A DNA stretch of 64,000 bases. Source: Escherichia coli (GTDB lineage Bacteria > Pseudomonadota > Gammaproteobacteria > Enterobacterales > Enterobacteriaceae). Shown here piece after piece: positions 6,641-41,917 of this stretch. The notes beneath the pieces were generated by a model. That model made no database searches, was not told the DNA's origin, and saw nothing but the letters and a program-made list of their open reading frames with translations. Within the stretch, counting starts at the first letter, position 1. Each line of letters starts with the position of its first letter. Position numbers and translations under genes: made by a program. The DNA lies in the NCBI RefSeq assembly GCF_048403405.1, contig NZ_CP183129.1, one strand, 5' to 3'.

Positions 6641-6726
6641 ACATTTAAGCTGATGACCACCGCGCTTTTTATTGACCATTTTGCACGCAAACTGGAAAAC
6701 CTGGCGTCGTCATCTATTCTTAAAGG

Positions 6727-6829
6727 GCAAGGCATCTAAGCCTGCATTAATGCCAACTTTTAGCGCACGGCTCTCTCCCAAGAGCCATTTCCCTGGACCG
6801 AATACAGGAATCGTGTTCGGTCTCTTTTT
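6727..6829 (+). ncRNA. sdsR: Small RNA SdsR (RyeB), sigma-S-dependent Hfq-binding sRNA
   Basis: Sequence GCAAGGC...TAAGCCTGCATTAATGCCAACTTTTAGCGCACGGCTCTCTCCCAAGAGCCATTTCCCTGGACCGAATACAGGAATCGTGTTCGGTCTCTTTTT recognised as SdsR, ending in a terminator hairpin plus U-run; lies between yebY and pphA as in K-12. Confidence 0.8.
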
Positions 6830-6963
6830 ATCTGTTAAAAGCCAGAAGCATTCCCTTCGCTGACTTTATAGTCAACCATAACACACACTCTACTGTCTGA
6901 GTCCAGCGTTTTTTAACATTCTTGTTAAGATTATGTGATCTTTAGCGCGGGAGGAAAATATTG

Positions 6964-21672: not shown

Positions 21673-22341
21673 TCCTTCCTCAATCTTGAGTAACCCCGTC
21701 GTTGAAGGGTTACTCAATTCATCCTGATTATACGCACTGCCATGGTGCAACTGCTTCAAATTAAAACTCTGGTCTGACTTCAAATAATTATCATATTATT
21801 TATTTGCGTAACGGGATATCAGAAAAAGATATTTAGCCCATTAATTTATTAGGATGTTTACATCGGATTTGTGATTAAGTGTGGTATTATTTATTAGCGA
21901 AACGTTTCTCTCTTGATTTTTTTGCGCATTCATCAATTTTTCTTATTTTAAATTTACAATACCTTTGGCGATTGACTTCTCTTTGGGGTGATCGATAGCC
22001 GTTAACTGACTGTTTTATGAGAAAAAGTGATATAACTTTTTATTCATTGCATAGCAGAAAATGTGATATTGCACGCACTATGTAATAACTTCTCCCACTG
22101 GCCTGGAACAACTGAACTTATTGAACTATGTTAGAAAATACGTCAGTTTAAGTATCTGCCTGAACTGGCAAGGTTAAGCACAATGATATATCGGCGCGTA
22201 TTCCGTTGCATAAGTGTGCAAAAAAAGTGGAAGACGTATCGAGATTTGTGCGTCTGATCGAGACATGTTTAAAAATGGCTTGCCATAATTAACGTTGTAT
22301 GTGATAACAGATTTCGGGTTAAACGAGGTACAGTTCTGTTT

Positions 22342-22485
22342 ATGTGTGGCATTTTCAGTAAAGAAGTCCTGAGTAAACACGTTGACGTTGAATACCGCTT
22401 CTCTGCCGAGCCTTATATTGGTGCCTCATGCAGTAATGTGTCAGTTTTATCTATGTTATGCCTGCGGGCGAAGAAAACAATCTAA
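22342..22485 (+). CDS. yobF: Small protein YobF, co-transcribed with cspC
   Basis: 47-aa [50 protein letters not shown] ending 12 nt upstream of cspC. Confidence 0.85.
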
Positions 22486-22497
22486 GGAATTTTTCAA

Positions 22498-22707
22498 ATG
22501 GCAAAGATTAAAGGTCAGGTTAAGTGGTTCAACGAGTCTAAAGGTTTTGGCTTCATTACTCCGGCTGATGGCAGCAAAGACGTGTTCGTACACTTCTCTG
22601 CTATCCAGGGTAATGGTTTCAAAACTCTGGCTGAAGGTCAGAACGTTGAGTTCGAAATTCAGGACGGTCAGAAAGGTCCGGCAGCTGTTAACGTAACAGC
22701 TATCTGA
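22498..22707 (+). CDS. cspC: Cold-shock-domain protein CspC
   Basis: 69-aa [72 protein letters not shown]; RNP motifs. Confidence 0.97.
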
Positions 22708-22752
22708 TCGAATCCACTGATCTGAAGTGTGAATACGCTTCAATCTCGCTAT

Positions 22753-22780
22753 AAAGCCTCGTCGAATGCGAGGCTTTTTA
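22753..22780 (+). terminator. Rho-independent terminator of yobF-cspC
   Basis: AAGCCTCG-tcgaat-GCGAGGCTT followed by TTTT. Confidence 0.75.
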
Positions 22781-22872
22781 CTTTGCTTTATCTTCGCTCC
22801 AGTCGTTCGGATATTTGCCCGCCGCGTGATTCGCGTTACACTTGCGGCCTTTAGTATCCTGCCGGAGTTGTC

Positions 22873-23682
22873 ATGTCGTTTTCCTGTCCACTTTGCCATC
22901 AGCCTCTTTCGCGTGAAAAAAACAGCTATATCTGTCCCCAGCGACATCAGTTTGATATGGCGAAAGAAGGGTATGTCAATCTGCTGCCCGTTCAGCATAA
23001 ACGGTCTCGTGATCCGGGCGACAGCGCGGAAATGATGCAAGCACGCCGCGCATTCTTAGATGCCGGACATTATCAGCCGCTGCGTGATGCAATTGTCGCC
23101 CAACTGCGGGAACGGCTTGATGAAAAGGCCACAGCGGTGCTGGATATTGGCTGTGGTGAAGGGTATTACACACACGCATTTGCCGATGCGCTGCCCGAAA
23201 TCACCACGTTTGGCCTGGATGTCTCGAAGGTAGCGATAAAAGCGGCGGCGAAACGCTATCCGCAGGTCACTTTTTGTGTTGCTTCCAGCCACCGTTTGCC
23301 GTTTTCCGATACCAGTATGGACGCCATAATACGTATTTACGCGCCGTGTAAAGCAGAAGAATTAGCGCGAGTAGTGAAGCCTGGCGGTTGGGTCATTACT
23401 GCCACGCCGGGACCGCGACATTTGATGGAGCTGAAGGGGCTGATTTACAATGAAGTACATCTTCATGCACCTCATGCAGAACAACTGGAAGGTTTTACAT
23501 TACAGCAGAGTGCTGAGTTGTGTTATCCGATGCGTCTTCGCAGTGACGAAGCCGTCGCATTATTGCAGATGACGCCGTTTGCCTGGCGTGCGAAGTCAGA
23601 AGTCTGGCAAACACTGGCAGCAAAAGAAGTGTTCGACTGCCAGACGGACTTTAATATTCACCTCTGGCAGCGTTCTTATTAA
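22873..23682 (+). CDS. rlmA: 23S rRNA m1G745 methyltransferase
   Basis: 269-aa ORF with N-terminal Cys4 zinc motif (CPLCHQ...CPQRHQ) and SAM-binding DIGCGEG motif. Confidence 0.9.
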
Positions 23683-24245
23683 CCGTGGAAGTGCGTCCAG
23701 AGGATCTGGACGCCGATGCCGATCAGCACCAGCCCGCCGAGAATTTCCGCTTTTTTCCCAATAATTGAGCCGATAAAGCGACCAACCATCATCCCTAATG
23801 TCGACATAATCAAGGTTGCACAACCAATGGCCAATGCGGTCGCGATAATGTTGACCTGCAGGAAAGCAAGACCAACACCCACAGCCATGGCATCCAGGCT
23901 GGTGGCAATCGCGGTGGTTACCAGTAGCCAGAAACCGTGTCGACGGCGCGGCTCTTCATCTTCATCATCTGCGCCACGAAAACCCTCAATAATCATTCGC
24001 CCGCCGAGGAATATCAGCAGCACAAACGCAATCCAGTGGTTCCATTCAAGGACAAACCGGCTGGCTAACATGCCCATTCCCCAGCCGATCAGCGGCGTCA
24101 GGGTTTCGACAGCACCAAAAATAAGGCCGGTTCGCAACGCTTCAGAAAATTTCGGTTTATGGAGGGTGGCACCTTTACCGATTGATGCAGCAAATGCATC
24201 CATCGACATACCAAACGCAAGAAGAACAGTAGCAGTGATATTCAT
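23679..24245 (-). CDS. mntP: Manganese efflux pump MntP
   Basis: ORF 23679-24299; start at [18 protein letters not shown]... giving 188 aa; polytopic. Confidence 0.9.
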
Positions 24246-24259
24246 GACAACGTCCTGAC

Positions 24260-24475
24260 CGGGGTATCCATAAAACACATCATCGCCCCCAGCAAACATG
24301 CATACATGAACGACAAACCGCGATGGTTTTCGCGTTCATGCAGGCATAGCGATTGATGTGCATATGGTCTCGCCTGACTGAAAGTGTTCAGTCCGTACGT
24401 GCCACGTTTTGCAACGAGTATGTTGACACGTACATTTCCGGAATCTGGAAATCGGCTACTCCCCAAATGAGGGCG
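24260..24475 (-). promoter_or_regulatory. yybP-ykoY manganese riboswitch in the mntP 5' leader
   Basis: Minus-strand leader contains the conserved GGGGAGUAG (revcomp of 24456-24464) and CAGGCGAGACC (revcomp of 24366-24376) aptamer elements; mntP riboswitch is established. Confidence 0.75.
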
Positions 24476-24673
24476 CAACCTTAACATATTTTGAGAATAT
24501 AAAACAACTGTTGGAATATATTATTTCATTGCTTTATTGATAACGATTTTCATTTAGATTTATATATCAATAAAACGTTAAAATAAATAACAAATAAGGG
24601 AAGGGGTAATATAGCCTAAGCTATGTCTGATTATTAAAAATACACTAAACATAGCTTTGGCTAAATTGATAAC

Positions 24674-25132
24674 TTATTGAGTTGAAACGAGAAGCTTATA
24701 AATTTTTTCCAGATCGTCGATATTTCGAACGCGGATTAACAGCCGACGCTGTTCTAATTGCATCACCAACACGCCATCTTCCGACAAGTTCATCGCTTTG
24801 ATTCGGCTATATTCAATCCAGACATTGGCGAAGAAAAAACCTTTTTGTTTAAAGATGATCTTCGGAACGCGGATCCAGAATATATAAAAACCCATCAGAG
24901 CCAGTGCACTTAATAACCATGTTGTTATTAGCGCGCCATGATTCGTGACGTTGTTATAGATAAGAATGACAATCAATCCGACGAAGATAACGCTATCGAT
25001 GCGACCACGCCGGAGCAAAGGAATTGCCAGCAGGGTGGGGCCGTTACGGCGGGGCATGATGAACTGATCGTAGATCGCGAAGGCCAGGAGTGCGGCGATG
25101 AAAAGAATCAGTACCAGGTCCGTGATTGTCAT
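24674..25132 (-). CDS. yobD: Inner membrane protein YobD (UPF0266)
   Basis: 152-aa hydrophobic ORF. Confidence 0.85.
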
Positions 25133-40186: not shown

Positions 40187-41871
40187 TTGAAGAAGGTTTG
40201 GCTTAACCGTTATCCCGCGGACGTTCCGACGGAGATCAACCCTGACCGTTATCAATCTCTGGTAGATATGTTTGAGCAGTCGGTCGCGCGCTATGCCGAT
40301 CAACCCGCGTTTGTGAATATGGGGGAGGTGATGACCTTCCGCAAACTGGAAGAACGCAGTCGCGCGTTTGCCGCTTATTTGCAACAAGGGTTGGGACTGA
40401 AGAAAGGCGATCGCGTTGCGTTGATGATGCCTAATTTATTGCAATATCCGGTGGCGCTGTTTGGCATTTTGCGTGCCGGGATGATCGTTGTAAACGTTAA
40501 CCCGTTGTATACCCCGCGTGAGCTTGAGCATCAGCTTAACGATAGCGGCGCATCGGCGATTGTTATCGTGTCTAACTTTGCCCACACTCTGGAAAAAGTG
40601 GTTGATAAAACCGCCGTTCAGCACGTAATTCTGACCCGTATGGGCGATCAGCTATCTACGGCAAAAGGCACGGTAGTCAATTTCGTTGTTAAATACATCA
40701 AGCGTCTGGTGCCGAAATACCATCTGCCAGATGCCATTTCATTTCGTAGCGCCCTGCACAACGGCTACCGGATGCAGTACGTCAAACCCGAACTGGTGCC
40801 GGAAGATTTAGCTTTCCTGCAATACACCGGCGGTACCACTGGTGTGGCGAAAGGCGCGATGCTGACTCACCGCAATATGCTGGCGAACCTGGAACAGGTT
40901 AACGCGACCTATGGTCCGCTGTTGCATCCGGGCAAAGAGCTGGTGGTGACGGCGCTGCCGCTGTATCACATTTTTGCCCTGACCATTAACTGCCTGCTGT
41001 TTATCGAACTGGGGGGCAGAACCTGCTTATCACTAATCCGCGCGATATTCCTGGGTTGGTAAAAGAGTTAGCGAAATATCCGTTTACCGCTATCACTGGC
41101 GTTAACACCTTGTTCAATGCGTTGCTGAACAATAAAGAGTTCCAGCAGCTGGATTTCTCCAGTCTGCATCTTTCCGCAGGCGGAGGGATGCCTGTTCAGC
41201 AAGTGGTGGCAGAACGTTGGGTGAAACTGACTGGACAGTATCTGCTGGAAGGTTATGGCCTGACCGAGTGTGCGCCGCTGGTCAGCGTTAACCCGTATGA
41301 TATTGATTATCATAGCGGTAGCATCGGTTTGCCGGTGCCATCGACGGAAGCCAAACTGGTGGATGACGACGACAACGAAGTACCACCGGGTCAACCGGGT
41401 GAGCTTTGTGTCAAAGGGCCGCAGGTGATGCTGGGTTACTGGCAGCGTCCGGATGCTACCGATGAAATCATCAAAAATGGCTGGTTACACACCGGCGACA
41501 TCGCGGTGATGGATGAAGAAGGATTCCTGCGTATTGTCGATCGCAAAAAAGACATGATTCTGGTTTCCGGTTTTAACGTCTATCCCAACGAGATTGAAGA
41601 TGTCGTCATGCAGCATCCTGGCGTACAGGAAGTCGCGGCTGTTGGCGTACCTTCCGGCTCCAGTGGTGAAGCGGTGAAAATCTTCGTAGTGAAAAAAGAT
41701 CCATCGCTTACCGAAGAGTCACTGGTGACTTTTTGCCGCCGTCAGCTCACGGGCTACAAAGTACCGAAGTTGGTGGAGTTTCGTGATGAGTTACCGAAAT
41801 CTAACGTCGGAAAAATTTTGCGACGAGAATTACGTGACGAAGCGCGCGGCAAAGTGGACAATAAAGCCTGA
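40187..41871 (+). pseudogene. fadD: Long-chain acyl-CoA synthetase FadD, interrupted by a -1 frameshift in a G6 run at 41011-41016 (premature stop at 41060-41062)
   Basis: Two ORFs (40121-41062 and 41056-41871) in different frames each encode a contiguous part of FadD (...[13 protein letters not shown] | [22 protein letters not shown]...); restoring one G rejoins them. TTG start at 40187. Confidence 0.85.
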
Positions 41872-41917
41872 GCGTTAAGTCAGTCGTCAGACGCCGGTTA
41901 ATCCGGCGTTTTTTTTG
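41830..41917 (+). ncRNA. sroD: sRNA SroD, derived from the fadD 3' end; boundaries approximate
   Basis: Established sRNA annotated at the fadD 3' end / fadD-rnd intergenic region in K-12, ending at the fadD terminator; placement from recalled annotation. Confidence 0.35.

Follow-up and report, generated by a model that had tools for sequence, protein, structure and literature searches.

The stretch of DNA analysed here, 64,000 nucleotides long and referred to throughout as the window, carries mntP on its minus strand, and the RNA preceding this gene raises the question of what it does, where it gives way to coding sequence and how it acts on expression. The interval 24246-24475 had been read in a preliminary description as a yybP-ykoY manganese riboswitch in the mntP leader. 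Our analysis indicates that the 225-nt leader is almost certainly such a riboswitch and that it turns expression on, an assessment that includes the mechanism proposed below. The mntP riboswitch is already known and is one of two manganese riboswitches in E. coli.

The neighbourhood of mntP corresponds to the Escherichia coli chromosome; a 1.1-kb query matched several complete genomes at 100% identity and was found in 5419 of 5426 genomes. Along the minus strand, yobD (25132..24674) is followed by a 428-nt intergenic region and then by mntP, with rlmA convergent on the plus strand, and these flanking genes are the same as in K-12. The encoded protein matched Pfam PF02659 with 189.4 bits (cutoff, 24.4) over profile positions 2-152 of 152, a domain boundary that carries no information on the choice of the mntP start. 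The leader extends over 24470..24246 of the minus strand, with the AUG at +226. Its first nucleotide was placed at 24470 since the numbering of A11 in L1 and A48 in L3 used in PMC12153347 fits solely with that start. The interval proposed earlier does cover the mntP leader, although its 5' end overshoots this inferred transcription start by 5 nt. A candidate promoter was recognised by eye (Table 1), and a promoter consensus scan called none for the start at 24470.

Table 1. Features of the mntP locus, given by position in the window and by nucleotide of the leader
Feature	Window position	Strand	Leader position	Basis
mntP coding sequence, 188 aa, manganese efflux pump, ATG 24245	23679..24245	minus		RefSeq and K-12 annotation
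Shine-Dalgarno AGGA, 7 nt 5' of the AUG	24253..24256	minus	+215..+218	Read from the sequence
In-frame 18-codon "extension", holding helix b, the anti-P1.1 strand and the Shine-Dalgarno	24246..24299	minus		ORF list
CCCCGGU, 3' strand of helix b	24258..24264	minus	+207..+213	
Anti-P1.1 strand UGAUGUGUUUUAUGG, 3' strand of helix a	24268..24282	minus	+189..+203	
GCUGGGG, 5' strand of helix b	24287..24293	minus	+178..+184	
Platform hairpin, lineage-specific insertion, indel-prone	24301..24350	minus	+121..+170	
P1.1 3' half and following bases, 5' strand of helix a	24354..24367	minus	+104..+117	Unconstrained MFE of full leader; enteric covariation
Mn2+ aptamer, four-way junction	24361..24470	minus	+1..+110	Fold, covariation and covariance models
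3' strand CAGGCGAGACC ((A)GGCGAGACC), closing P4, P1.2, L1 and inner P1.1	24376..24366	minus		Unique in window
L3 strand GUCAACAUAC, metal-binding core between P3.1 and P3.2, A48 at 24423	24427..24418	minus		
L1 5' strand GGGGAGTAG / GGGGAGUAG, with conserved adenosine A11 at 24460	24464..24456	minus		Unique in window
P1.1, followed by L1			C2-U4/A108-G110 and U6-G8/C104-A106	
P1.2			G15-C17/G97-C99	
P2			A19-C24/G32-U37	
P3.1, followed by L3			G38-G44/C70-C76	
P3.2			C55-U58/A63-G66	
P4			G78-A84/U89-C95	
Candidate mntP promoter, -35 TTGTTT (24507..24502) and extended -10 TGnTAAGGT (24486..24478)	24478..24507	minus		By eye
Inverted-repeat arms 24608-24626 and 24649-24667	24608..24667	minus		19 nt, 89% complementary

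A manganese aptamer of the yybP-ykoY family

Both sequence elements quoted in the preliminary description are present in the mntP leader, each of them once in the 64-kb window, where chance alone would give 0.16 occurrences of GGGGAGTAG and 0.01 of CAGGCGAGACC. A third hallmark of the family, GUCAACAUAC, had gone unnamed; L3 strands of this type recur at at least 120 loci in several phyla. The roles of A11, A48 and L3 are described in PMC12153347. The fold of the leader came out as had been suggested, with the four-way junction being both the minimum free energy (MFE) structure and the centroid of +1..+113 (-37.5 kcal/mol, z = -3.45) and 0 of 200 shuffles folding as well. The junction is found here at the level of secondary structure. 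For the K-12 aptamer, an apo crystal structure (PDB 4Y1M) is cited through PMC12153347, and in the account given there the helices form two coaxial legs (P1.1-L1-P1.2-P2 and P4-P3.1-L3-P3.2) that dock.

Scanning a genome collection with the pattern GGGGAGTAG-N15-45-GTCAACATAC-N30-60-GAGACC returned at least 120 loci, which among the matches listed came from Proteobacteria, Cyanobacteria and Clostridia. The E. coli structure was projected onto a plain MAFFT alignment of 121 sequences, in which GGGGAGUAG is invariant by construction of the search pattern. Across this alignment 85.4% of the cells in aptamer helices were paired, compared with 33-44% when the 3' partners were slid, and 28 of the 33 pairs had changed on both sides. 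The covariation score reached 0.586, against at most 0.188 in the controls. The count of doubly changed pairs was reached by 83 of 500 shuffles, the other observed values by none. RNAalifold, run unaided, recovered P1, P1.2, part of P2, P3.1 and P3.2. Covariation across the 121 sequences supports every helix of the aptamer.

The genes 3' of these loci encode MntP, GDT1/UPF0016, Na_Ca_ex and CDF proteins, all metal or cation exporters; the gene-family counts are approximate, the longest ORFs having been re-called. Taking the first ORF downstream of each locus had produced spurious arginine-rich frames in high-GC genomes, and that procedure was replaced by the longest ORFs. The aptamer is present in three copies in Sphingomonas sp. 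BAUL-RG-20F-R05-02 (L067, L068, L069), located before MntP and two CDF genes, and in two copies on plasmid pREB1 of Acaryochloris marina (L065, L066). One E. coli genome has the mntP leader also in a plasmid-borne copy. Many alphaproteobacterial copies (L005, L014, L017 and other sphingomonads) show an AUG directly after GAGACC (GAGACCAAUGG) that opens a long ORF; in L011 the likely start of the exporter lies further downstream than this AUG. The post-GAGACC AUG is probably an artefact of the long ORFs found in high-GC genomes.

A scan of the whole window with Rfam at the gathering threshold gave four matches, none of them at the mntP leader. A permissive scan of 24100-24700 placed RF00080 at 24472..24376 on the minus strand with 41.9 bits, below the gathering score of 45, and with E = 6e-10. 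The covariance-model check that had been suggested therefore stands as far as significance is concerned, and with a model of our own (89.1 bits), but the stock model falls short of its curated cutoff. The K-12 leader, which has been characterised experimentally, also stays below the cutoff with 41.6 bits. The E. albertii copy scored 35.5 bits, while the copies of 11 other species ranged from 27.2 to 104.6 bits, 10 of the 11 lying above the threshold. In the Rfam release used, RF00080 has 177 positions; pairs of P1.1 and P1.2 are missing from it, and the GAGACC strand is assigned to "loop" columns of weak conservation, which extend about 70 nt into expression platforms. Aligned to this model, the E. 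coli RNA has P4 matched to the terminal stem and the "loop" columns deleted, and CAGGCGAGACC is never scored. Because the validated K-12 leader fails too, and because of this layout, the shortfall lies in the model and not in the leader. The RefSeq E. coli records inspected (H1 and H9-H20) and the K-12 reference record carry no riboswitch feature at 24358-24472, which is consistent with the Rfam score below the gathering threshold.

Our own covariance model was built from 84 non-enteric sequences only, and its structure is the majority of the individual MFE folds, which gave the same four-way junction. Searched against both strands of the window, it produced a single match, full length, at 24358..24472 of the minus strand (89.1 bits, E = 4.9e-20); since exact matches to the L1, L3 and GAGACC motifs had served to pick the training sequences, the motif share of this score is circular and the helices are its independent part. 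These results bear on the alternative that the two motifs co-occur by chance in a leader devoid of aptamer function, a reading in line with the stock Rfam scan, which at the gathering threshold returns nothing at the leader. Each motif, however, has a single occurrence in the window, the full set of six helices is present and shows covariation, the model match has an E-value near 5e-20, and 4599 of 5422 E. coli genomes have an aptamer at least 99% identical to that of the window, a level that the far less conserved platform attains in only 470. Experimental literature also exists on the K-12 aptamer, one loop base different. Chance co-occurrence is refuted by the fold, the covariation and our covariance model, and its probability is negligible.

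The rest of the window gave further Rfam matches. A cspA thermoregulator match (139.7 bits) at 22322-22782 of the plus strand spans the yobF-cspC leader and gene, the K-12 cspC being named cspE in RefSeq record H1. Full-length matches were obtained to the antisense sRNA pair SraC/RyeA and SdsR/RyeB at 6689-6833, on both strands, and to sroD at 41830-41915 of the plus strand. SraC/RyeA, SdsR/RyeB and sroD are expected E. coli sRNAs.

The identification of the leader as a yybP-ykoY manganese riboswitch is thus borne out by the junction fold, the covariation, our covariance model and an aptamer that is one base away from that of K-12. The K-12 mntP (yebN) riboswitch (Dambach et al. 2015; Price et al. 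2015; Stephen et al. 2025, PMC12153347) sits at this very locus, between the same neighbouring genes. The two strains share the sequence of the aptamer helices, L1 and L3, as well as the UTR length of 225 nt, the Shine-Dalgarno and the start codon. They differ by five SNPs in +1..+225: the P4 loop at +85 (C/U), the sole difference in the aptamer, three positions in the platform hairpin (+150, +154, +159), and one position between the Shine-Dalgarno and the AUG (+220). As a result of the hairpin SNPs, the strain analysed here has G-C in place of one G-U pair, together with a small inner stem, CGCG/CGCG. A K-12 leader fusion driven from a constitutive promoter was induced 7.5-fold by Mn, and isothermal titration calorimetry (ITC) shows binding (PMC9603457). 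Direct, selective Mn2+ binding and the expression response were reported for the K-12 sequence, from which the window aptamer differs by a single base in the P4 loop.

Start codon of mntP and upstream reading frames

A program-made ORF list starts mntP at ATG 24299, which gives a protein of 206 aa and places the start 18 codons 5' of the annotated one; RefSeq and K-12 both annotate ATG 24245 and 188 aa. The preliminary description had assigned 24246-24299 to leader RNA rather than to coding sequence, and start-codon conservation, stops in relatives and annotation all agree with that assignment. In 39 of 39 parsable riboswitch-linked mntP genes, the conserved MSxDAF motif is preceded by an ATG at a distance of exactly 12 codons, which corresponds to 24245 in the window. 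Among the loci examined, an in-frame ATG at the position of 24299 occurs solely in Escherichia and Citrobacter, and the frame of several relatives is interrupted by a stop between the positions of 24299 and 24245. AGGA precedes ATG 24245 by 7 nt, and inspection of the sequence upstream of ATG 24299 revealed no SD-like element.

Two readings would nevertheless give the leader a coding role. One holds that the 18 codons are translated and that MntP is made, at least in part, as a 206-aa isoform from ATG 24299. E. coli, E. albertii and Citrobacter do have the in-frame ATG with no stop before 24245, and 13 residues of the translated 24246-24299 stretch look conserved among enterics. This apparent amino-acid conservation, however, coincides with helix b, the anti-P1.1 strand and the Shine-Dalgarno, which covary as RNA. 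The lack of an SD-like sequence, the confinement of the upstream ATG to two genera with stops in several relatives, the ATG shared with distant relatives exactly 12 codons before MSxDAF and the annotated length of 188 aa point the same way. The isoform appears refuted for practical purposes by the start-codon comparison, and we regard it as extremely unlikely.

The other reading assigns a contribution to mntP control to a 27-codon upstream ORF (uORF) at 24363..24280 of the minus strand. The frame opens with an AUG within the 3' strand of P1.1 and closes in the anti-P1.1 strand, so that its translation would block both alternative pairings, and a GAG is found 5-7 nt 5' of the AUG. Against this, conservation of the AUG is limited to Escherichia and one Citrobacter, other enterics having AUAGG, AUUGA and similar sequences, and the peptide is not conserved either, since an indel in E. 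albertii shifts the AUG into the frame of mntP. The AUG would also be base-paired in P1.1 in the Mn-bound state, and we found no literature on an mntP uORF. A regulatory part for this frame is very improbable. The peptide it encodes has four Cys and two His. In E. albertii (L007:939-1071), the hairpin is 13 nt shorter, which brings the P1.1-embedded AUG into frame with mntP; there, unlike in E. coli, an open in-frame extension of 47 codons results (MHINRYACANTFVV...).

Expression platform and proposed switching mechanism

We compared 25 enteric leaders in an alignment that begins at the GAGACC strand and ends at the start codon. The hairpin at +121..+170, which is the single platform helix of the published probing study, proved to be an insertion found in Escherichia and Citrobacter alone; one E. 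coli strain and E. albertii have a version that is shorter by 12-13 nt. A different, shorter insert was observed in Pluralibacter and one related isolate, with 20-27 nt in Pluralibacter where E. coli has the hairpin, and the hairpin was absent from the remaining 15 species aligned. The mntP leaders of Enterobacter, Kosakonia, Cedecea, Phytobacter and others share the aptamer and the platform core (helix a, helix b and the Shine-Dalgarno context); they have no hairpin of about 50 nt, which brings the gene about 50 nt closer to the aptamer. The Shine-Dalgarno context GGUCAGGAC is kept in most enterics among the 25 leaders. A terminator-like motif, CGCGAAAACCAUCGCG followed by GUUUGUCGUU, was seen at 24319-24334 of the minus strand, inside the inserted hairpin. 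Its stem depends on SNPs of the strain lineage, K-12 having CACGG, and the motif may be due to chance (one site against 0.3 expected).

Outside the insertion, the platform contains two helices. Helix a joins the 3' half of P1.1 and the bases that follow to the anti-P1.1 strand, and 6 of its 13 pairs show compensatory changes across the 25 enteric species. The position of the anti-P1.1 strand fits the "riboswitching point" at about 205 nt of PMC12153347. In helix b, 96.6% of the cells are paired and 3 of the 7 pairs have changed on both sides. Taken together, the two helices are paired in 92.6% of the cells (slid controls, 32-50%), with compensatory changes in 9 of 20 pairs. As the structure came from the E. 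coli fold, the difference from the slid controls is inflated, and the compensatory changes are the stronger evidence. Helices a and b are mutually exclusive because they cross. In the unconstrained fold, the CCCCGGU strand has an alternative partner in U5-G10 of L1/P1.1, and the L1 G-run pairs with CCCC at +207..+210. P1.1 thus has a competing partner in the platform, in agreement with PMC12153347.

From these elements the following course of events is proposed. At high Mn2+, the ion would sit between L1 and L3, keep the two helical legs docked and lock the P1.1 switch helix. The downstream strand would then remain unpaired, and the segment adjoining the ribosome-binding site (RBS) would form the local hairpin +178..+184/+207..+213. 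At low Mn2+, once about 205 nt have been transcribed, +189..+203 would invade P1.1 and pair with its 3' half at +104..+117, and the freed G-run of L1 could pair with CCCC at +207..+210. The Mn-bound leader would allow more translation initiation at AUG 24245, and the translating ribosomes would protect the mRNA against Rho-dependent termination, both in the leader and in the early part of the coding sequence. Further activation, at the level of transcription, would come from MntR and Fur acting upstream. Co-transcriptional probing places the switching point at about 205 nt and finds L1 and P1.1 disrupted without Mn (PMC12153347). Rho-dependent termination in the mntP leader and early ORF, partly relieved by Mn, has been reported as well (PMC11647493; review PMC12360218).

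The P1.1-closed and the invaded states were forced in the 25 enteric leaders. By nearest-neighbour energies, the invaded state was more stable by 5-17 kcal/mol in all 25 species, so ligand-dependent tertiary stabilisation would be needed to hold P1.1. An energy gap of this size, as modelled, fits Mn-dependent tertiary stabilisation combined with kinetic control. Accessibility of the Shine-Dalgarno showed no consistent difference between the forced states across the 25 species (0.44 vs 0.45, p = 0.54), and the AUG was slightly more open in the supposed OFF state. The published probing describes the RBS as "dynamic", with no clear Mn-dependent change. The earlier expectation of an alternative structure that sequesters the mntP ribosome-binding site was not supported; folding captures the P1.1 switch helix instead. 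Sequestration of the Shine-Dalgarno was not adopted as the OFF mechanism, its accessibility showing no consistent difference in the forced states of the window leader and of the 25 species. The 5' strand of P4, considered by eye as an anti-SD (CUGA/UCAG in E. coli, CUCA/UGAG in Cedecea), was also discarded, as it fails in Pluralibacter, Dickeya and Mixta.

How the toggle affects access of the ribosome is something that we infer. One tentative reading, possible rather than probable in our judgement, is that the platform of Enterobacterales is a compact toggle of two helices in which the hairpin of about 50 nt is a dispensable insertion, and that this toggle alters ribosome or Rho access without pairing of the Shine-Dalgarno. 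The route may involve, for example, a standby site, folding kinetics or tertiary contacts. Published models let the hairpin dominate the E. coli platform, whereas here it would be an insertion specific to Escherichia and Citrobacter. The main rival to direct gating of the RBS is a more direct role of Rho, in which regulation runs mainly through this factor, the toggle modulates a leader pause or the exposure of a loading site for Rho, and changes in translation follow. Bicyclomycin raises reporter output 23-28 fold, compared with 9-16 fold for Mn alone, and in a purified ribosome-free system Mn restored run-off transcripts despite Rho (PMC11647493); Mn-dependent opening of the RBS was absent from our modelling and from the published probing. 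Translational fusions under a constitutive promoter nevertheless respond to Mn (PMC9603457), the authors of the Rho study and a later review (PMC12360218) ascribe the effect to restored transcription-translation coupling, and a reported Rut site maps to the early part of the mntP coding sequence, not to the toggle (PMC12360218). Regulation mainly through Rho seems to us rather unlikely.

The region upstream of the leader contains putative elements of transcriptional control. Each arm of the inverted repeat at 24608-24626 and 24649-24667 contains a palindrome of the type CATAGC-N4-GCTATG, which we take to resemble the MntR box. Judged by their sequence, the arms, at about -147 and -188 from the inferred mntP start, are probably candidate MntR operator sites. 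MntR and Fur activate at the mntP promoter (PMC8632737). The same arms gave spurious microRNA-precursor matches on both strands in a permissive Rfam scan. The stretch from the candidate MntR sites to the promoter contains a second inverted repeat, AT-rich, with 22-nt arms that are 82% complementary (24521-24542 and 24565-24586); action of Fur and H-NS is reported for the region of this repeat.

Related riboswitches and implications

The yybP-ykoY element of Lactococcus lactis controls an intrinsic terminator and acts on transcription, whereas the mntP element of E. coli has a long translational, Rho-linked platform with a lineage-specific hairpin. In the aptamer the two are alike: the same four-way junction, docked L1/L3 and P1.1 switch helix are found in L. 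lactis yoaB and in the Xanthomonas oryzae yybP-ykoY element, as far as these are described in PMC12153347, which cites crystal structures for both. The alx (ygjT) riboswitch of E. coli likewise belongs to the yybP-ykoY family and is a translational ON switch of a Mn exporter that involves disruption of P1.1 and L1 (PMC12153347). It differs in lacking P2, and so has a three-way junction where mntP has a four-way one, in a different L3 sequence, in its intrinsic terminators and in its response to alkaline pH (PMC12153347). The alx RBS was modelled as paired directly with the disrupted P1.1/L1 (PMC12153347); no such pairing was found in the mntP folds.

For the biology of E. coli, the confirmation of the mntP riboswitch brings nothing new. 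For annotation, a scan at the Rfam gathering threshold misses this validated riboswitch in Escherichia, and mechanical ORF lists over-extend mntP by 18 codons into functional RNA. The enteric comparison separates the conserved part of the platform from the recent insertion, and could help work on how the ribosome-binding site is gated.
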